Sequence record: NC_103192.1
Direction: 5' to 3' (one strand)
Source of the DNA: a phage
Length of the DNA: 64,000 nt
Each line of letters begins with the position of its first letter. The first letter of the stretch is position 1. Shown here piece after piece: positions 50,877 to 58,661 of this stretch. The notes beneath the pieces are model-generated. The model was not told the origin of the DNA. It made no database searches and saw only the letters and a list, made by a program, of their open reading frames with translations. Both the position numbers and the translations under genes were made by a program.

Positions 50877-51140
50877 TCAGAAACCCTCTAAAAAGCTCTT
50901 GTAGAAAATAATCTCAGTATCCACACCAGTCACGATCTTGTCGTTCCAGATTTCATCTGTAAGATAGGTGTCAAAACGCAGCACCTGTGTGGTATTGTCA
51001 CACATCCACTCGGCTGTGACCATGGCAAAAATCTTGGCATCTTCATTATCTGGTGTGAATGTTACCACCTCGCCGCACTTAAACTTTTCGATAGGTTGAG
51101 TGTTAGCTTTCGGTTCTGCGATAGTGATTTTCGTGGTCAT
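50877..51140 (-). CDS. hypothetical protein
   Basis: 87 aa; TAATG overlap with upstream gene. Confidence 0.4.
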   Translation of the reverse strand: MTTKITIAEPKANTQPIEKFKCGEVVTFTPDNEDAKIFAMVTAEWMCDNTTQVLRFDTYLTDEIWNDKIVTGVDTEIIFYKSFLEGF

Positions 51141-51397
51141 TACTCTTCCTCCATAGTTTCACCAAATACTTCGATACGAGCATCGAGCTCGGTTGCTTTC
51201 AGCTCACCAACAAAATCTTTTAGTTCTTTCTCGTCCAGATCGTAAGCCCACACACAAGAAGAACATGCAGATTTCACAATCAGCAGCGTAGATACACGAC
51301 CTGACTCCGTGATCATGCTCACAATGGTTCCTACAGGGAACGTGTTGATAGCTTTTTTAACTGGGCGTTCAGCTTTGATTACTACCTCTGTTGCCAT
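51140..51397 (-). CDS. hypothetical protein
   Basis: ATG at 51397 with GAGAGGA RBS preferred over track start 51406. Confidence 0.4.
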   Translation of the reverse strand: MATEVVIKAERPVKKAINTFPVGTIVSMITESGRVSTLLIVKSACSSCVWAYDLDEKELKDFVGELKATELDARIEVFGETMEEE

Positions 51398-51412
51398 AAA
51401 TAACATCCTCTC

Positions 51413-52873
51413 TTATTTAGCGTACCCGATCAATTCTACAGTTTTCCCAAAGCTTGGGATATAATTTTTATTATACCCTTCGGTGAGAACCCATAAAGTA
51501 TCGTACTTTTTCCACTTGTTGTCAACAACCTTTTGTTCAAAGTTGTGCTCAAAGTAGAGGTCGGTCAGGACGATGACATCTTTTGCATTTGGTATGTTAG
51601 CGTCCAGATACTCGAACACGCAAGCGGCTGTTGTGCCCCATGTTGAGTGGACCTCGTAGTTGATCATCTCGTCGATGTTCCCGCGAGTGTATACTTTAAC
51701 CTCTCCAACCTCAGTTGACCAACAGAACATCGTAACCTTGAACTCTTTATACAGATTGCACAACCCAGTGATCTCATTGAACATTTTCTTTAAAGTTCTT
51801 TGTGAGATCGATCCAGAAACGTCTAAAGCCACCACAATATCTATAGTGTTTTCCGGATTACGACCAGGAACAACAACGTGCTGATTCTTGTTTATAGCTC
51901 CAACTTTTCGCATTGTGCTGGTCAAAGACCCAGATCGGCGACCAGGTTTTCTGTAGGTTAGTTCAGCCTTTCGTTTAGACAGCATACGTTGCTTAATGAT
52001 GTCTATATAATTGATTACAGGCTTGCCTCTGTTTTTGACAAACTCGCGCACAGCCTCAGGGCAACGACCTCCGGAAGCTTGCATTGCTGCTTCCAACATG
52101 TCACCAGAGTCCTGCATGGCCTGATCTTTATCAGATTGACTGATCACGGGTTGTGGCTGATCATACCCCATAGCCTTTCCAAGATCGTCACTTGTGCCAC
52201 CGTTCCCACTCATGTGATCATCGGTTTGTCGTTTATCTCCTTGAGAGTTCTCGCCTTTACCGTTCTTACTTTTACCACTATTCTGATCTCTTTGCTTATC
52301 AAGAACTGCATAGACGTTCTCAGCAATCCATCCATGGAACCTCATGTCACAGTAGCAACTAGCTAAGAAGCCAAAAGGCTTACCTTTTACGAACGTAGTG
52401 CTTTTCCCCTTCGGAAAGAAAACACAAGGGGGCTTGCTAAAGTCAACCACAAGACCTGTGTTGATAACATGATCACAGGCAATATTGAACAGTTCCGGCT
52501 CAAAGCTTTTACCACGGACCAGATGATCGCAGATAATATGCCCCACTTCATGCGATAGAAGAAAGGCCACCTCTTTCACAGATTTGGGGGAATAGAAAAC
52601 CTCAGCCATCTCAAACTGCTCGTCAGTCAGAGATGCTTTAAGAATGGTTTTGCGCTCATCAGCCAGTCCCATAATGAACTCGGGACTGTAATAAATGCGT
52701 TTATGGTCTGTTGCCATGGTGGAGCACCATGTGTGGTTTTCTACGAACTGCAGCCCTGACAATAGTGTGCCATAAAACGGCAGTTTTTCAAGAAGATACA
52801 TGCGTGCTGCCTGCAGCATTCGCAAGGCGTCATCTTTTTGTGCGGCAATGATTTCTGAACTTCTGCTATCCAT
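51413..52873 (-). CDS. VWA-domain protein with N-terminal HExxH metallopeptidase-like domain
   Basis: zinc motif SHEVGHIICDH; C-terminal MIDAS-like VVALDVSGSIS; ATG 52873 with GGAG RBS (track start 52894 is TTG inside a hairpin). Confidence 0.6.
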   Translation of the reverse strand: MDSRSSEIIAAQKDDALRMLQAARMYLLEKLPFYGTLLSGLQFVENHTWCSTMATDHKRIYYSPEFIMGLADERKTILKASLTDEQFEMAEVFYSPKSVKEVAFLLSHEVGHIICDHLVRGKSFEPELFNIACDHVINTGLVVDFSKPPCVFFPKGKSTTFVKGKPFGFLASCYCDMRFHGWIAENVYAVLDKQRDQNSGKSKNGKGENSQGDKRQTDDHMSGNGGTSDDLGKAMGYDQPQPVISQSDKDQAMQDSGDMLEAAMQASGGRCPEAVREFVKNRGKPVINYIDIIKQRMLSKRKAELTYRKPGRRSGSLTSTMRKVGAINKNQHVVVPGRNPENTIDIVVALDVSGSISQRTLKKMFNEITGLCNLYKEFKVTMFCWSTEVGEVKVYTRGNIDEMINYEVHSTWGTTAACVFEYLDANIPNAKDVIVLTDLYFEHNFEQKVVDNKWKKYDTLWVLTEGYNKNYIPSFGKTVELIGYAK

Positions 52874-52885
52874 TAAAACTCCAGA

Positions 52886-52902
52886 AGGGGCCAACGGCCC
52901 CT
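52886..52902 (-). terminator. hairpin between minus-strand genes (partial terminator/processing site)
   Basis: AGGGGCC-AAC-GGCCCCT inverted repeat with U-run downstream on the minus strand. Confidence 0.35.
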
Positions 52903-52906
52903 GTCA

Positions 52907-53896
52907 TTATTTAACGTGCTTGAAAATACCAGCCAACTCGGTCATTGTCATGCGAGTGGTCTTCATAAGGTCTGTCATAGCCTTCTCCATAATTGGAGAT
53001 ACTACCATAAAGTTACCTTTGGTGAAACCTTTATTCCAGTCGGTCACTAATAACGGTTTAAGTCCTGCCCCGAAACGCTCACCAGTTAAAGCACAGCATT
53101 TTCGAATGTACGTGCTCTTAAATTGGCTGAATGACAGATCAACTTTCATACCTGCATCGTAGAACGTCTGGCAATAGAAAGTGTAGGCTTTAGCAATCTC
53201 AACATCGTCAGGCAGTGCAGGAACCTCTTCTGTAAGCCCTTCTTCGACCTTTTGAGGCTCTTTTTCCTCTTCGTGAGCCTGTTGCGTCATTTCTTCAATC
53301 TCTTCTGTTACAGGCTCATTTACGATGTCAGAAATGTGCTTGTTGGCTTCACGATTAGCCATGAAGTTTTTAAAATCCTGCATTGGTGACATATCTTCCT
53401 CCCATTCTTCGTCAAAGAGTGCCAGTTTATCCTCTTCCGTTCCATATTGCAAGATGAAATCTTCAAAAGTGTAATCACCTTTCAATTTCTCCATGCGCTC
53501 TTCGCTCAGGTGAAGCATCATCTGCTGGACAATTTTTCGATCAGTTTTGTCTTTAATCAAGACTGCGGTCTTTTTATCTACCAGACAGTCCTTCAGGGAG
53601 TTGCACCTTAACCCAACCACACAACAGTTATCAATTGCGTAAGGACCTTCATCATCTATCCGCTCTAAGGATGGATAGAAAGGATTGCCCAACCCGTTTT
53701 CATCTGTGTGCATGTCAAAAGGTATAAGGGTATAGTCGCACACCCCCTCTCCTAAAAGTTTTTTACCAAATAGGAGGTATTCTTCCCATGACAGGTTGAA
53801 CTCTATATCTCGTTTCCGTGCATTATTTTGTTTGCGTCTGTATTTTTTGAGCAGGCGCTCTAACTCTTCTGGTGTATAATATTTTTCAAGATTCAT
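52907..53896 (-). CDS. HNH-like nuclease-domain protein (two Cys-rich modules, acidic linker)
   Basis: segment GVCDYT...HTDENG...SLERIDDEGPYAIDNCCVVGLRCNSLK fits an HNH-like C...N...CxxCN..K pattern; second Cys module near C-terminus; ATG 53896 preferred (53962 is TTG without RBS). Confidence 0.4.
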   Translation of the reverse strand: MNLEKYYTPEELERLLKKYRRKQNNARKRDIEFNLSWEEYLLFGKKLLGEGVCDYTLIPFDMHTDENGLGNPFYPSLERIDDEGPYAIDNCCVVGLRCNSLKDCLVDKKTAVLIKDKTDRKIVQQMMLHLSEERMEKLKGDYTFEDFILQYGTEEDKLALFDEEWEEDMSPMQDFKNFMANREANKHISDIVNEPVTEEIEEMTQQAHEEEKEPQKVEEGLTEEVPALPDDVEIAKAYTFYCQTFYDAGMKVDLSFSQFKSTYIRKCCALTGERFGAGLKPLLVTDWNKGFTKGNFMVVSPIMEKAMTDLMKTTRMTMTELAGIFKHVK

Positions 53897-53927
53897 AAGT
53901 CGTCTCTTGTGCTTTGTAGGTGAAGAA

Positions 53928-53956
53928 ATCTTATCAAGTGCCTCAACAGATGTCAA
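53928..53956 (-). promoter_or_regulatory. leftward promoter TTGACA-17-TAAGAT
   Basis: -35 is reverse complement of 53951-53956, -10 is reverse complement of 53928-53933. Confidence 0.5.
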
Positions 53957-53969
53957 CCTCAAAAACGTG

Positions 53970-53998
53970 TTGACTTTACTCTAAATCCACGATATAGT
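53970..53998 (+). promoter_or_regulatory. rightward promoter TTGACT-17-TATAGT
   Basis: -35 at 53970-53975, -10 at 53993-53998. Confidence 0.5.
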
Positions 53999-54038
53999 GC
54001 ACCCATTCTAAAGAAAACGAACACAGGATCACTTAATC

Positions 54039-54938
54039 ATGTCAAATCTTAACAGCTTTAGCACTCGGTGGAAACAAGATATCACAACCAATCTCTCAGC
54101 AGGGGATATCCTTTCTGCAATTTACGAGGCCTTGGATGATAAAGCTACTTCAAAATCGGTCTGTACCAACCCGCTAATTCCTATAGTAATGAAGGTGATT
54201 GAACGTAGGTTGGTATCCGGATCTGATAAGTGGACATATCTGGATAATGGAGGCCACACTTACTCCAACGGATATGTTGATATAAAAGTGGAATACGCAG
54301 TATCATATCGCCGGAGCGGCTCTGTAACTTTCAACTTCTCTGGTGGTTTCCGATCTCTGGCAACTTCACCTTTTGTTTCCTCAGAGGAGAAGTTTGAACT
54401 TCCGTTCCTTTGGATGATGGCTAACGCGACAGGCAAAACCCCTGTAAGCATTCGCGTAAAATACAACTACAACGGATCTAGTAAGATCTATGCCGAGAGT
54501 GTCTCAGCAAGTTTTTATTTTGTGATGGGAGATGGAATCCTCAAACATATAAAGATGTGTGATATGCATGATGTTATAAATGAAGTAACTGATAAGAATG
54601 TTCTAGTAAAAGACCTCAACAATTTTTATACACCTGGAGACTATTACGTCAACCGTCCACTGTGCATCTTTAATGCCGCACACCCTTTAGGTGAGTATTT
54701 GATCGCCAATAGCGATATTGCCAATAACCGCTTCGAGGTAGCAAGAGTACAGAATGAGGTGTTGACATCTTGCAAGAGTGGTGATAAGTTTACCGAAGAA
54801 GAGATGAGTGTTTTAGAAATGATGGGATATAAGTGTAGCCTTTGGGTAGATGAGGTGTTTAATGACGGCATCTATGGACAGGATATTTACCCGTTAAAGA
54901 AGTATACTGATTCCAGTTTAATTTACGCGGAGATTTGA
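54039..54938 (+). CDS. hypothetical protein
   Basis: 299 aa, first gene of the rightward operon. Confidence 0.45.
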   Translation: MSNLNSFSTRWKQDITTNLSAGDILSAIYEALDDKATSKSVCTNPLIPIVMKVIERRLVSGSDKWTYLDNGGHTYSNGYVDIKVEYAVSYRRSGSVTFNFSGGFRSLATSPFVSSEEKFELPFLWMMANATGKTPVSIRVKYNYNGSSKIYAESVSASFYFVMGDGILKHIKMCDMHDVINEVTDKNVLVKDLNNFYTPGDYYVNRPLCIFNAAHPLGEYLIANSDIANNRFEVARVQNEVLTSCKSGDKFTEEEMSVLEMMGYKCSLWVDEVFNDGIYGQDIYPLKKYTDSSLIYAEI

Positions 54939-54940
54939 CT

Positions 54941-55213
54941 ATGATGAAGTCATGTGGTAGTGTATATTATGTTGGTGAGGATGTTCAGGCAGATAGTGTG
55001 TGGAAATCCATTAAGTCCACCACCGACGATGCCTTCTTGAGCGGGTTATGTTTCCCCAATCCAGGAGACATTCTCCCTCACCCTGGAGATTTTGTTGTCA
55101 ACAAGACGGACGGTTATACCGTGTGCCTGATGGTTGAAAAAATCTTTTTAGACACTAGACACAATCACCGTCTTGTGCTAAAATTTCAAGAATGTAAAAT
55201 GACAGTTGCCTAA
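54941..55213 (+). CDS. hypothetical protein
   Basis: ATG 54941 with GGAGA RBS (track start 54935 is TTG). Confidence 0.35.
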   Translation: MMKSCGSVYYVGEDVQADSVWKSIKSTTDDAFLSGLCFPNPGDILPHPGDFVVNKTDGYTVCLMVEKIFLDTRHNHRLVLKFQECKMTVA

Positions 55214-55226
55214 GGAGGCCTTACCG

Positions 55227-55583
55227 ATGTCCAAAGTTACTTATCGTGCAGCTATTTACTGCAATGAACAACCAATCAATAATGACGGTCACTGCCTTTT
55301 TAAAGAAAATCAGTTGGGCTGTATTGTCCTCCCTGATGAAGGGGAAGGTTATCTGATTGCATTGACAGGGTTTGAGCCTGAAGCCTTGGAAGCCAATCTG
55401 GACTACCTGGTAGAGAAGGGTGCTGCAGACCTGGTTGCCAATGGCCTCTCCATAAGCCTTGAAGAAGTGGAGCGCTTCATGGGCAATTACCGTGTAGTGC
55501 GTGAGTTTACTGTCGAGGTGGAAACTCCAGAGTGGGGTAGCACTGAAACTAATGCTGAAGAAAAAGAAGAGGAGGTAGAATAA
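55227..55583 (+). CDS. hypothetical acidic protein
   Basis: ATG 55227, 8 nt after TAAGGAGG. Confidence 0.4.
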   Translation: MSKVTYRAAIYCNEQPINNDGHCLFKENQLGCIVLPDEGEGYLIALTGFEPEALEANLDYLVEKGAADLVANGLSISLEEVERFMGNYRVVREFTVEVETPEWGSTETNAEEKEEEVE

Positions 55584-55840
55584 TGAAAGTGCAAATCTTG
55601 ACTAATGCCGAGAAGATGTTTATCGAAGATACGCCTTTTGAAACTGGTGAGCTACAGTTTGTATATTTTGTTGACTTAGATAAGGTTTTTCCTGCGCTGA
55701 ATCTGGGTTTGGAGAAAGTACCTTATAAAACTCTATGCCAGGTTGTCCGTGCCTTAGCGGCAGATGGGGAGTTCCGCACCCTTGAAGATATCCAGACCTG
55801 TGGGTATCTTGAACTGCAACGAGAAGAAGAGGTGGACTGA
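55583..55840 (+). CDS. hypothetical protein
   Basis: 85 aa, GGAGG RBS, TAATG coupling. Confidence 0.4.
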   Translation: MKVQILTNAEKMFIEDTPFETGELQFVYFVDLDKVFPALNLGLEKVPYKTLCQVVRALAADGEFRTLEDIQTCGYLELQREEEVD

Positions 55841-55842
55841 TA

Positions 55843-56223
55843 ATGGCCCAGTGGAAGACAACAGTTGACCTTCATGATCAGTGGTTAGGACGCATCACCG
55901 AAGACGGGAAACTAGTGGAGTGGGACAACAAGCATGTTAGCGAGTTGGCAAGCATTGTGGCTGGTAAATTACGCTCCAAGTTCCCTGAACAACTGGATCC
56001 TGATAGTTCAAAGTTCGATCCTGAGTTGGAGGATGTTGTATACTACTTCGACACCGTTGATGACTACGACGCGTGGTTTGCAGCACGGGAGCTTTACCCA
56101 CAAGGCTCTGCTATGCGCCAGATGGAAGAAGATTATCCTCCGTGTGAGCAATTCAATAGTGCAATGACTTGCCTCTATGATTGGGCAGATAAGAACCTTG
56201 TCTGGATTCGGACTGCATTTTAG
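55843..56223 (+). CDS. hypothetical acidic protein
   Basis: 126 aa, GAGGTGG RBS. Confidence 0.4.
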   Translation: MAQWKTTVDLHDQWLGRITEDGKLVEWDNKHVSELASIVAGKLRSKFPEQLDPDSSKFDPELEDVVYYFDTVDDYDAWFAARELYPQGSAMRQMEEDYPPCEQFNSAMTCLYDWADKNLVWIRTAF

Positions 56224-56267
56224 TGGGCAGGAATGGCGGCAAGGATGCTGCTTAAGGAGTAGTAGAG

Positions 56268-56537
56268 ATGTTATACCAGCAATATGAACTTCGTGCAGAA
56301 AAAGAGTTAAATTTTGACAAAGATATTCACAGATATTATTATGGGAAAGTTAGAGGGCAAGCAAGAAAGTGTACTCCAACACTCTTTTATGCCAGCAGAC
56401 GACTAGCGCCAGAAGAGGCAACAGCAGAAAGGGTTGCATATGGCTGGAGAGTTGCGTATGATATTGACAGATCCGATGTGATGTCTGTTTTGGAAAACTT
56501 TGAAAACACTTACACACAAGTAGAGGACTTTTACTAA
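56268..56537 (+). CDS. hypothetical protein
   Basis: 89 aa, AAGGAG RBS. Confidence 0.4.
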   Translation: MLYQQYELRAEKELNFDKDIHRYYYGKVRGQARKCTPTLFYASRRLAPEEATAERVAYGWRVAYDIDRSDVMSVLENFENTYTQVEDFY

Positions 56538-57721
56538 TGTCAAGAAACGTATTCGAAAGTGGTCAAATCACTGTCCGCGAGTTGCCAGCTATTATTCAAT
56601 TTGCCCAGCGTCATAACCGATCTGTCCTGATTTTAGGACCGATGGGTGTGGGGAAGAGCCAGGTGATGAAGCAGATTGCTGATAATATGTTCGGTGAGCG
56701 AGATGACAACCTGGTTGACGTGCGGCTGTCAGATAAAGATCCTGCTGACTTGTCTGGACTACCTATCCCTGTAGAGGCAGATGGAACTACACGCACAGTG
56801 TTTGCAATTCCAGAATTTTGGCCTGCAGACTCGGACTGGAGCGGAATTATCTTTCTGGATGAGCTTACTCATGCAGATAACTACCTGCAGAAGGTTGCAA
56901 TGCAAATTATGCTCGACCACAAGTGCGGCACCTATGCATTTCCTAAGGGCTCTGTTTTTGTAGCTGCAGGTAACCGTTCTACAGATGGTACGGTTCTTTC
57001 GGCGCTCGAAGCTCCTCTGGCTAACCGCTTTATCATTGTAGAAGTTACAAGCAATGCAGAGGTGTTTATTGAGGACTATGCATTCCTTAATGGGGTGCAC
57101 TCCTCTGTAATTGGATATTTGAAAAGAGTTCCATCAGCTATTGATAATTATGAGGCTATGGCTGAGATTAATTGTCCATCTTTTGCCACACCGCGATCTT
57201 GGGTTGCTGCATCTGATATCTTGCACGATTTTGACAGCGGTATTATTTCTGACGCTATGGCCCGTGTTCTTCTGCAAGGTGCTATTGGTCACACTGCAGC
57301 GGTAGAGATCTGGACTTACCACACCAAGAAACGCAATTTACCGGAAATCGGTCGGATTATGGCAGGTGGCTGCAAAGAATACGTAGGTCCTAAGCAGCCA
57401 GACATTTTGTGGATTCTTGGATCTGAAGGTTGTATCGCTATTCGTAATATGATGGAAAATGCAAGTATCTCAGACGAAGATCTTGTCAGCTGCGTGGCAA
57501 ACTTCCTCGATTTCCTTTGGGAAAACTTCAAGGACGAGAACCGAGATTTTGTATTCTCAGTCTTTATGGCGATGATGAAACCTAATGCCTTAGGAAATGC
57601 CTTGCTTATCGGTAAAGGGCGTGACAAGATTGTTGCTCAGCTGATCAAAGCATACCCAAACCTGATGAAGATTGTAAAAGAGTTTGGTGAAGAGTTTAGC
57701 GCCATTTTGGCTAAAGCTTAA
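56537..57721 (+). CDS. MoxR-like AAA+ ATPase (AAA_5 type)
   Basis: Walker A LILGPMGVGKSQ, Walker B IIFLDELTHA, sensor-1 FVAAGNRS, Arg-finger region LEAPLANRF. Confidence 0.65.
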   Translation: MSRNVFESGQITVRELPAIIQFAQRHNRSVLILGPMGVGKSQVMKQIADNMFGERDDNLVDVRLSDKDPADLSGLPIPVEADGTTRTVFAIPEFWPADSDWSGIIFLDELTHADNYLQKVAMQIMLDHKCGTYAFPKGSVFVAAGNRSTDGTVLSALEAPLANRFIIVEVTSNAEVFIEDYAFLNGVHSSVIGYLKRVPSAIDNYEAMAEINCPSFATPRSWVAASDILHDFDSGIISDAMARVLLQGAIGHTAAVEIWTYHTKKRNLPEIGRIMAGGCKEYVGPKQPDILWILGSEGCIAIRNMMENASISDEDLVSCVANFLDFLWENFKDENRDFVFSVFMAMMKPNALGNALLIGKGRDKIVAQLIKAYPNLMKIVKEFGEEFSAILAKA

Positions 57722-57730
57722 GGGGGTTGT

Positions 57731-58111
57731 ATGGCTAAAGTAGGTAAGCGGGGAAACTACCTGGTGGTATTGACCGAGGAGCCGGAGAAGGAGTACGAAT
57801 GCAGCTCCACTTGCGTGATCGATATCCGAGAAAAAGATGTAGATGAAATCTGGTTTAAAATATTGGACGCTTGCGATAGCAGTGATTATTTCTTCATCTA
57901 TGTCAACGATAAGGCTGGGTTCTTCCATGACGACGGAGAGTTGCCGTATGAAATCTATGAACTTGTAGAGGCTTGCCATCGTGGAGATGCGGAGTTATTT
58001 GGCTTACGGCTGAAAAGCGGTAAATTCTTCTACCAAGACGAGTGCATGAATCTTCACAACTTCGTAGAGGGAACTTGCAACGATGGAGAGATTTTGGCAC
58101 ACTACGACTAA
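57731..58111 (+). CDS. hypothetical Cys-containing acidic protein
   Basis: 126 aa, AGGGGG RBS. Confidence 0.4.
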   Translation: MAKVGKRGNYLVVLTEEPEKEYECSSTCVIDIREKDVDEIWFKILDACDSSDYFFIYVNDKAGFFHDDGELPYEIYELVEACHRGDAELFGLRLKSGKFFYQDECMNLHNFVEGTCNDGEILAHYD

Positions 58112-58123
58112 TTTCTAAGACCA

Positions 58124-58151
58124 CCCCCGCTTCGGCGGGGATTTTCTATTT
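58124..58151 (+). terminator. rho-independent terminator with UUCG tetraloop
   Basis: CCCCCGC-TTCG-GCGGGG then ATTTTCTATTT. Confidence 0.7.
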
Positions 58152-58160
58152 GGAGCTATT

Positions 58161-58661
58161 GTGAAAATTAAAATCTTTGCTATTATTTTGAGCGCATTTT
58201 TATCGCTGCCTGTTGTTGCAGCACCCAAACAAAAAGTATATCACACCTGCAAGCCATCGGATACTAAGGAGAACATTCTGGCATGCAATATCTACAGGGA
58301 AGCCAGAGGAGATGGCACGATGGGTATGCTGGCATCAGGGTTTGCCACACTAAACAGGAAATCTCACCCCAAATACCCGGACACCATAAGAAAGATTGTC
58401 TACCAACCTAACCAGTTTTCGTGGACAAACCACGGCAAAACTTTTAAGGTGACAGAAAAAGATTCATGGGATCACGCTAAAAGTCTTGCAAAGATGCTTC
58501 TAAAGGTCTATAATAACAACCATGTTGCATACATGGCTATGGATATAACAGGTGGAGCAACGCACTATCATACAACAAAAGTACGACCGAAATGGGCAAA
58601 AAAGATGCAGAGGACAGCTCAATTCGGGAGTCATATCTACTACAAGGAGCGCAATAAATGA
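58161..58661 (+). CDS. secreted SleB-like cell wall hydrolase (endolysin candidate)
   Basis: N-terminal signal-peptide-like MKIKIFAIILSAFLSLPVVAAP; core NIYREARGDG...ATLNR...PDTIRKIVYQPNQFSW fits the Hydrolase_2 (SleB) pattern. Confidence 0.6.
   Translation: MKIKIFAIILSAFLSLPVVAAPKQKVYHTCKPSDTKENILACNIYREARGDGTMGMLASGFATLNRKSHPKYPDTIRKIVYQPNQFSWTNHGKTFKVTEKDSWDHAKSLAKMLLKVYNNNHVAYMAMDITGGATHYHTTKVRPKWAKKMQRTAQFGSHIYYKERNK

Follow-up and report, generated by a model that had tools for sequence, protein, structure and literature searches.

A MoxR-class ATPase and a zincin–VWA protein encoded as a split, putatively cognate pair in the early region of an rV5-like phage

Genes for MoxR-class AAA+ ATPases and for their von Willebrand factor A (VWA) domain partners are, as a rule, adjacent. 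In the 64,000-nucleotide stretch of phage DNA analyzed here (sequence record NC_103192.1; hereafter, the window), a gene for a MoxR-like ATPase and a gene for a protein joining an HExxH domain to a VWA domain lie on opposite strands with 3,664 bp between them. This arrangement raises the questions of whether the two genes encode a cognate pair, how they came to be separated, and what their products might do. An initial annotation made from sequence alone had proposed that they are a split pair, both driven from a hub of divergent promoters, that could serve as an assembly chaperone for the fibre set or as a protease-activating defence or counter-defence module.

The window belongs to a phage with a genome of 135–140 kb and a very large fibre module. 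Over the 7.2 kb around the two genes, its identity to more than 100 rV5-like coliphages of the genus Vequintavirus (among them FV3, YP-6, and BASEL phages) is 94–96.5%. In rV5 itself, gene 4 is given as 'MoxR - ATPase' with 394 amino acids; gene 12 is listed as conserved and hypothetical, carrying PF13203 (DUF2201_N) (Kropinski et al., 2013). GenBank records of rV5-like relatives name the two genes 'MoxR ATPase' and 'VWA-like domain-containing protein' or 'metal-dependent peptidase'.

The ATPase and the zincin–VWA protein

The two genes and their diagnostic motifs are as follows (MIDAS, metal-ion-dependent adhesion site).

56537..57721, + strand: MoxR-class AAA+ ATPase gene, 394 amino acids, homologue of rV5 gp4 and N4 gp24
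56636..56659, + strand: Walker A motif GPMGVGKS, amino acids 34–41
56846..56863, + strand: Walker B motif IIFLDE, amino acids 104–109
51413..52873, − strand: zincin (DUF2201_N) and VWA (DUF2201) gene, 486 amino acids, homologue of rV5 gp12 and N4 gp25
52538..52552, − strand: zinc-binding and catalytic motif HEVGH, amino acids 108–112; H117 and D134 downstream are also invariant
51809..51823, − strand: MIDAS motif DVSGS, amino acids 351–355; T414 and D438 complete the site

We accept the product of 56537–57721 as a divergent MoxR-class ATPase, for which a hexameric ring and ATPase activity are predicted, because its motifs, its homologues, its family profile, and its predicted structure agree. 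In addition to the Walker motifs, the protein has the sensor 1 (AAGNR), ANRF arginine, and TPRS motifs that complete an AAA+ core, and G39, K40, S41, D108, E109, N146, R147, R164, P219, and R220 are invariant in 42 sequences. The roles given to these single residues follow general knowledge of AAA+ proteins. Homologues number in the thousands, and those about 34% identical (E ~1e-43) carry both AAA_3 and AAA_5; a Pfam scan of the window protein gave no AAA_3 (PF07726) match. The family profile finds the AAA modules of midasin as its best PDB matches (1.9e-10), and a direct PDB sequence search with the ATPase returned P-loop-level Clp matches only. The predicted model (pLDDT 85.8) has CbbQ and NorQ as its nearest folds, followed by dynein, CHU_0153, and midasin, and displays the helix-2 insert hairpin and pre-sensor-1 hairpin of the solved MoxR proteins. 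A VWA/MIDAS partner, as expected of the MoxR class, is encoded with it.

The partner gene starts at ATG 52873, preceded by GGAG, and its 486-amino-acid product agrees with the GenBank coding sequence of phage YP-6. It matches DUF2201_N (PF13203; 5.5e-28, 98.8 bits against a Pfam cut-off of 23.2, amino acids 96–321) and then the VWA-like DUF2201 (PF09967; 6.5e-11, 42.9 bits against a cut-off of 26.4, amino acids 353–488), the domain order of the DUF2201 family, whose COG name is 'predicted metal-dependent peptidase'. Both the HExxH zinc site and the MIDAS of the VWA fold (DxSxS...T...D) are intact: H108, E109, H112, H117, D134, D351, S353, S355, T414, and D438 are invariant among 47 homologues of 20–81% identity. 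Fold matches include the VWA domains of NorD and BchD and the solved NorQ/NorD VWA complexes; a direct PDB sequence search with the protein gave no match, an NCBIfam scan gave nothing significant, and no DUF2201 family member with a solved structure or an assay was found in the sources searched. From these residues we predict peptidase activity, and the invariant catalytic glutamate argues for proteolysis as part of the function.

Public labels for this family are inconsistent. PHROG 1314 calls it 'HNH endonuclease', a name copied by many GenBank records, and 'anti-sigma factor' also appears as the gene's name in some of them. The 89-amino-acid open reading frame at 56268–56537 is an 'ATPase' according to PHROG 13164, yet it has neither an ATPase motif nor a Pfam match. 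These annotation errors are spreading. An 819-amino-acid homologue (P0026) was considered as a fusion of both proteins and rejected, its hhalign probability with the ATPase being 0.2%.

Co-occurrence of the genes and history of the split

We scanned IMG/VR with a profile of the ATPase and searched each locus with hidden Markov models (HMMs) of both proteins; 92 loci and the window make 93 sequences (the prefix L marks a locus below). In 61 of the 93, which take in N4-like, jumbo, AR9, cyanophage, and bacterial (L002) loci, the VWA gene comes immediately after the ATPase gene and reads in the same direction. It is found 3.4–5.1 kb upstream on the opposite strand in 16 (15 loci plus the window), all of which retain both genes with every motif intact, and it is missing in 15 owing to a contig end within 1 kb. 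Both genes are thus present in 77 of the 78 sequences with enough flank. The remaining one, an rV5-like contig (L016; IMG/VR contig 3300045988_163358), has a 59% identical ATPase and no zincin–VWA gene in the 10 kb upstream, where large open reading frames lie on the + strand; it may represent a rearrangement, an assembly chimera, or a real loss.

The association extends well beyond the relatives of rV5. In a survey of 50,697 phage records, 671 carry the VWA protein and 810 the ATPase, with near-identical counts per genus. An AAA_5 gene is followed directly by a DUF2201 gene in the bacterial locus L002, and a second bacterial locus, L098, has the same order. The ATPase-then-VWA order also recurs in environmental phage contigs of 150–370 kb, in AR9, in cyanophage S-TIM5, and in Rak2-like jumbo phages. 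In four N4-like loci (L003, L004, L096, L097) a gene of 377–424 amino acids is directly followed by the VWA gene; HMM score or Pfam match identifies the former as the ATPase in L003, L004, and L097, and in L003 and L004 the HMM scores are 141–146 for the ATPase and 408–422 for the VWA protein. Pairwise distance matrices of the two proteins correlate with r = 0.975, which shows joint inheritance and is not by itself proof of interaction. Because the genes strictly occur together and stand side by side in nearly all other lineages, two bacterial loci among them, we regard the ATPase and the zincin–VWA protein as a cognate pair on the strength of comparative sequence evidence, and we infer that the two proteins interact physically.

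These results uphold most of what the initial annotation had said of the locus: a MoxR-like ATPase on the + strand, borne out by its AAA+ motifs, homologues, and CbbQ/NorQ-like model; an HExxH–MIDAS protein on the − strand, confirmed by its DUF2201_N and DUF2201 matches and its HEVGH and DVSGS motifs; a separation of about 3.6 kb across a divergent intergenic region; two genes that belong together; and an arrangement that is both real and unusual. The domain matches that it anticipated were found in part, DUF2201_N and the DUF2201 VWA domain scoring above their cut-offs and AAA_5 below.

A search for a third conserved partner gene found none that the window region has in common with Certrevirus, W70, N4-like, or environmental loci; the genes next after the pair gave no Pfam match in bacteria, AR9, or the window. 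Individual neighborhoods have features of their own. In N4-like and environmental phages the pair sits among genes for dCTP deaminase, thymidylate synthase, and exonuclease. The two gammaproteobacterial loci (L002 2289–9445 and L098 2931–8445) share the series Hsp15, thioredoxin, AAA_5 MoxR, DUF2201, an unknown 370-amino-acid protein, and ferrochelatase, a possible sign that the bacterial pair has a conserved cellular setting. In S-TIM5 (L095 3524–7623), the order is Hsp20, MoxR-like ATPase, zincin–VWA, a small open reading frame, and a 407-amino-acid FG-GAP beta-propeller protein, reminiscent of MoxR–vWA–beta-propeller ternary systems.

Within the Vequintavirinae both arrangements occur. Certrevirus CR9 (gp126/gp127), Septuagintavirus W70, and a phiTE-like contig have the two genes side by side, a few genes to the right of the divergent junction. 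In Vequintavirus, Seunavirus 4MG, a Mydovirus-like Klebsiella phage, and L093, a relative with a 62% identical VWA protein, the junction lies between the two genes. Among the loci compared, the split is confined to the Vequintavirus/Seunavirus/Mydovirus branch. Since Certrevirus and Septuagintavirus keep the genes adjacent, the simplest reading is a single old relocation that was then kept: in an ancestor of Vequintavirus, Seunavirus, and Mydovirus, the VWA gene would have been transferred across the divergent early region to its opposite arm, and the split would be a historical accident. In comparisons of the window region with Certrevirus or W70, conservation is limited to the ATPase, the VWA protein, and SleB, so the pair appears as a stable core amid fast-changing early genes. 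As a separate observation, the PIF1-type helicase gene beside rIIB in L093 (1–1557; 1174 amino acids) has an intein, with Hint, Intein_splicing, and LAGLIDADG matches.

Predicted promoters, terminators and neighboring genes

Promoter-like and terminator-like elements around the pair are the following.

53956..53928, − strand: leftward hub promoter TTGACA-17-TAAGAT with TG, equal to rV5 P011
53970..53998, + strand: rightward hub promoter TTGACT-17-TATAGT, equal to rV5 P010
56314..56342, + strand: promoter-like TTGACA-17-TATTAT (11/12), 197 nt upstream of the ATPase start
52951..52923, − strand: weak promoter-like ATGACA-17-TATTTT with an extended -10 (TG), lying within the Srd-like gene at its 3' end
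52886..52902, − strand: GC-rich hairpin AGGGGCC-GTT-GGCCCCT followed by TCTGGAGTTTTAATG, terminator-like, immediately upstream of the VWA start
58125..58140, + strand: strong intrinsic terminator CCCCGCTTCGGCGGGG followed by ATTTTCTATT, equal to rV5 t003, ending the ATPase transcription unit

The claim that the hub drives both genes was not established by this analysis, which found a conserved sigma-70-like element for each gene and a hairpin before the VWA gene. The hub promoters, predicted as P010 and P011 for rV5 by Kropinski et al., match 10 of 12 consensus positions each and occupy a 142-nt divergent gap, from which the ATPase gene is 2.5 kb and seven open reading frames downstream. The promoter-like site at 56314–56342 is kept at the same distance in relatives of 59–72% identity (including L093 and L013), and Certrevirus-type genomes have their own promoter, with 10–11 of 12 matches, 33–36 nt upstream of the ATPase gene. 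On the other arm, a site similar to 52923–52951 stands at the same distance in relatives of 62–72% identity, and the hairpin that separates the VWA gene from the upstream Srd-like gene is conserved in position across the Vequintavirinae.

These last elements form a cassette before the VWA gene: a sigma-70-like promoter, a GC hairpin 0–3 nt past the -10, a U-run, GGAG, and the start codon. It is present in adjacent-type genomes (CR9, W70, L008, L027) as well as in split-type ones (L017, 4MG, K54_rec3, L023, L024); Vequintavirus proper retains the hairpin and has a weaker promoter with an extended -10. Copies lie at these positions, among others.

L010: 5930–5985
L011: 4905–4976
L008: 11240–11269
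L012: 3625–3665
L009: 7940–8000

Transcription from the cassette promoter would start within the hairpin's 5' arm, and for this reason the cassette could block read-through from upstream yet let its own transcripts pass. With a promoter of its own for each gene already in the adjacent lineages, the two would have been separate transcription units before the split, and the relocation, in which the VWA gene probably carried its upstream cassette along, would have been tolerated because of this.

The timing of expression may be judged from the same elements. A late-type motif resembling that of T4, TGGTAAAATA, is enriched in the window (18 matches with at most one mismatch, against 5.6 expected). 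Apart from three one-mismatch copies at 47–56 kb, the matches lie on the + strand of the structural module (window positions 1–45000), which holds all four exact copies, in line with the late promoters proposed for rV5. No TGGTAAAATA motif precedes either gene of the pair in the window. In the AR9 record an early promoter is annotated directly upstream of the AAA/zincin–vWA pair, and N4 gp24 and gp25 are reported as middle transcripts. We infer that the pair is expressed early or in the middle period in the window phage as well. Genome position and promoter type, if they reflect such timing, would point to a target other than the late structural proteins.

Three further genes of the region complete the map.

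52907..53896, − strand: Srd-like 'anti-sigma' gene, rV5 gp11 homologue, which opens the leftward unit and separates the VWA gene from the hub
56268..56537, + strand: 89-amino-acid open reading frame, rV5 gp5 homologue, with its stop codon overlapping the start of the ATPase gene (ATGA)
57731..58111, + strand: 126-amino-acid gene, rV5 gp3, T5.083-like, last gene before the terminator

The rIIA and rIIB genes, like the Srd-like gene, are near the pair. The product of the Srd-like gene has no Pfam domain and matches PHROGs for Srd anti-sigma factor, 'decoy of host sigma70', and endonuclease VII-like proteins; the gene is common to Seunavirus and Mydovirus and not found in Certrevirus. The name 'putative alpha 1-3 fucosyltransferase', given in GenBank to the gene at 54039–54938 (+ strand), appears unsupported, with no Pfam or NCBIfam match. 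Sixteen 'Campylobacter phage' records (MG0656xx; host C. jejuni; e.g., A147 and C9) are ~94–98% identical to window positions 51000–58200, and the presence of this E. coli rV5-like region in them looks like mislabelling or contamination.

A possible two-part machine and its alternatives

The reading that we favor, with a probability of about 0.5, is that both proteins make up an ATP-driven, MIDAS-targeted peptidase machine expressed early or in the middle period. The two genes would encode two halves of this machine. The ATPase would form a MoxR-type AAA+ ring; the partner would dock on it via its VWA/MIDAS domain, which may bind an acidic residue in the ring, and/or would use the MIDAS to seize such a residue in a target protein. 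Remodelling driven by ATP would present the target to the fused zincin, or unlock the peptidase, and the target would be cut. Host sigma-70 RNA polymerase would read both genes from the early region, largely from their own promoters and not from the hub alone, and the machine would act on a phage or host protein in the cytoplasm, either ahead of virion assembly or apart from it. This mechanism is drawn by analogy with CbbQO, NorQD, RavA/ViaA, the chelatases, and midasin.

Several points weigh against this proposal. A search of the Vequintavirus literature by title and abstract found no phage transcriptome. The matches of the ATPase to AAA_5 (PF07728; E 0.0069, 16.8 bits) and bpMoxR (E 0.0087, 15.6 bits) fall under the Pfam cut-offs of 22 and 27, respectively. 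All three fold searches with the partner protein were dominated by its VWA half, the zincin half giving no fold report, and the sequence links of that half to M48 peptidases and minigluzincins are weak (E 0.02–0.07). A Mantel correlation such as ours is expected for any two vertically co-inherited genes. The calling of the hub promoters rests on position and not on statistics, because consensus matches are common in the window by chance (20, against 13.8 ± 4.1 in shuffles). Assembly chaperones, moreover, can also be made early, and so the genome position is compatible with a morphogenetic role.

Known systems resemble the pair to different degrees. N4 gp24 (an AAA ATPase) and gp25 (a vWFA protein), 2 of the 14 core genes of N4-like phages (Schitoviridae), are homologous to the window pair, and L003, L004, L096, and L097 show the same domain architecture. 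By tblastn, the window VWA protein finds 'N4 gp25-like' genes in LIT1 (6e-18) and DSS3phi2 (2e-13), and the window ATPase matches the adjacent ATPases of many N4-like phages. The proteins are, however, only ~20–27% identical, and the N4-like genes are adjacent and co-directional between RNAP2 and dCTP deaminase, whereas those of the window lie 3.66 kb apart on opposite strands and thus lack the ATPase-then-VWA co-directional adjacency of the N4 module. In group 2.2 jumbo phages, a MoxR AAA+ ATPase and a metallopeptidase–vWA protein were described as a 'chaperone/co-chaperone' pair (Iyer et al., 2021, Viruses 13:63). The two-protein module is the same, the peptidase again standing N-terminally of the vWA domain, and Rak2-like and other jumbo phages match both window proteins directly with the genes adjacent (TH47, pEa_SNUABM_47); that description covers jumbo phages only and assigns virion assembly by analogy, whereas the window phage is smaller and has the genes split in an early context. 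The Acidianus two-tailed virus also encodes a MoxR/VWA pair, similar by description and needed for tail development (as cited in Iyer et al., 2021), but it is an archaeal virus and its pair has no peptidase domain. CbbQ/CbbO (Rubisco activase) and NorQ/NorD (nitric oxide reductase maturation) differ in that CbbO and NorD have no zincin domain and in that the window phage has no Rubisco or nitric oxide reductase genes; CbbQ and NorQ are 17–20% identical in sequence to the window protein. Midasin (Rea1/Mdn1), which gives the ATPase family its best PDB profile match, likewise joins AAA modules of the MoxR/dynein type to a substrate-gripping MIDAS, but in a single giant eukaryotic polypeptide of six AAA modules that has no peptidase and acts in ribosome assembly.

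It is possible, though we think it doubtful, that the pair is a morphogenesis chaperone, with the MoxR ring and its VWA co-chaperone helping to build the tail, fibres, or head of the virion and the peptidase trimming structural proteins. Iyer et al. (2021) put this role forward for the jumbo-phage pairs by analogy with the Acidianus two-tailed virus, and some neighborhoods agree with it: the S-TIM5 pair comes after an Hsp20 gene and before one whose annotation is virion structural protein, roseophage RPP1 has some virion protein genes close to its gp24/gp25 homologues, and the window phage has its very large fibre module. Yet in every lineage examined the pair lies outside the structural module, among early, middle, or nucleotide-metabolism genes; the absence of a late-type motif before either gene and the annotated early promoter in AR9 point the same way, and the pair is common to phages of unrelated virion architectures and to bacteria. 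That rV5 gp4 and gp12 have no mass spectrometry evidence in virions counts weakly, the proteome being shallow and chaperones needing no packaging. The narrower form of the idea in the initial annotation, a chaperone for the large rV5 fibre set, is unlikely, because N4-like podoviruses, AR9, Rak2-like phages, a cyanophage, and bacteria share the pair and not that fibre set. Its other suggestion, a defence or counter-defence module, drew no match in PADLOC, whose library holds host systems only; there the VWA protein had no match and the ATPase P-loop-level matches only (E 5.6e-4 or weaker). A related and speculative idea, which we would back only with considerable reserve, is that a MoxR ring with a MIDAS-targeted zincin is a conserved early weapon of large virulent phages, recognizing and cutting one host protein shortly after infection in takeover or counter-defence, and not an assembly chaperone. 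This would take in rV5 gp4/gp12, N4 gp24/gp25, AR9 g028/g029, and the Rak2-like jumbo phages, the protease being two-component and ATP-gated.

The structural likeness to CbbQ and NorQ, together with NorD and BchD among the VWA matches, invites the reading of a cofactor-insertion or enzyme-maturation factor, like NorQ/NorD, CbbQ/CbbO, or the AAA+/VWA subunits of chelatases, that remodels a phage or host metallo-enzyme. The target might then be, for example, an enzyme of nucleotide metabolism, as the neighbors in several lineages (dCTP deaminase, ThyX or ThyA, thymidylate kinase, HD phosphohydrolase) and the ferrochelatase gene two genes from the pair in two gammaproteobacterial loci could suggest, and HExxH would be a metal-binding or regulatory site instead of a protease. 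We consider this improbable: the full zincin signature, catalytic glutamate included, is invariant in 47 of 47 sequences and fits catalysis better, no single enzyme gene is a constant neighbor, and the neighbor associations are few. Least credible is a functional decoupling after the split, with the ATPase and the zincin–VWA protein acting alone or with other partners. Opposite strands, separate promoter-like elements, and a loss of adjacency in a whole branch of the subfamily would accord with it; however, 16 of 16 split sequences keep both genes with motifs intact while the proteins diverge in parallel, separate transcription predates the split, and apart from L016 no lineage was clearly seen with one gene alone.

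The peptidase machine, should it exist, is not a new kind of system, because the genes have been so annotated since 2013 and the pair type was described in 2021. The module itself, its rV5 annotation, and its presence in N4-like and jumbo phages are already known; what is new here is that these lineages are explicitly linked, that the split is dated to a single Vequintavirinae branch, and that a conserved promoter/hairpin cassette is described. The module is widespread in phages and core in the N4-like phages, with a putative function only. Its rV5-like carriers infect E. coli K-12 (several BASEL phages match), making genetics feasible in a tractable host, and with a promoter of its own for each gene, either could be deleted or tuned without a polar effect on the other.

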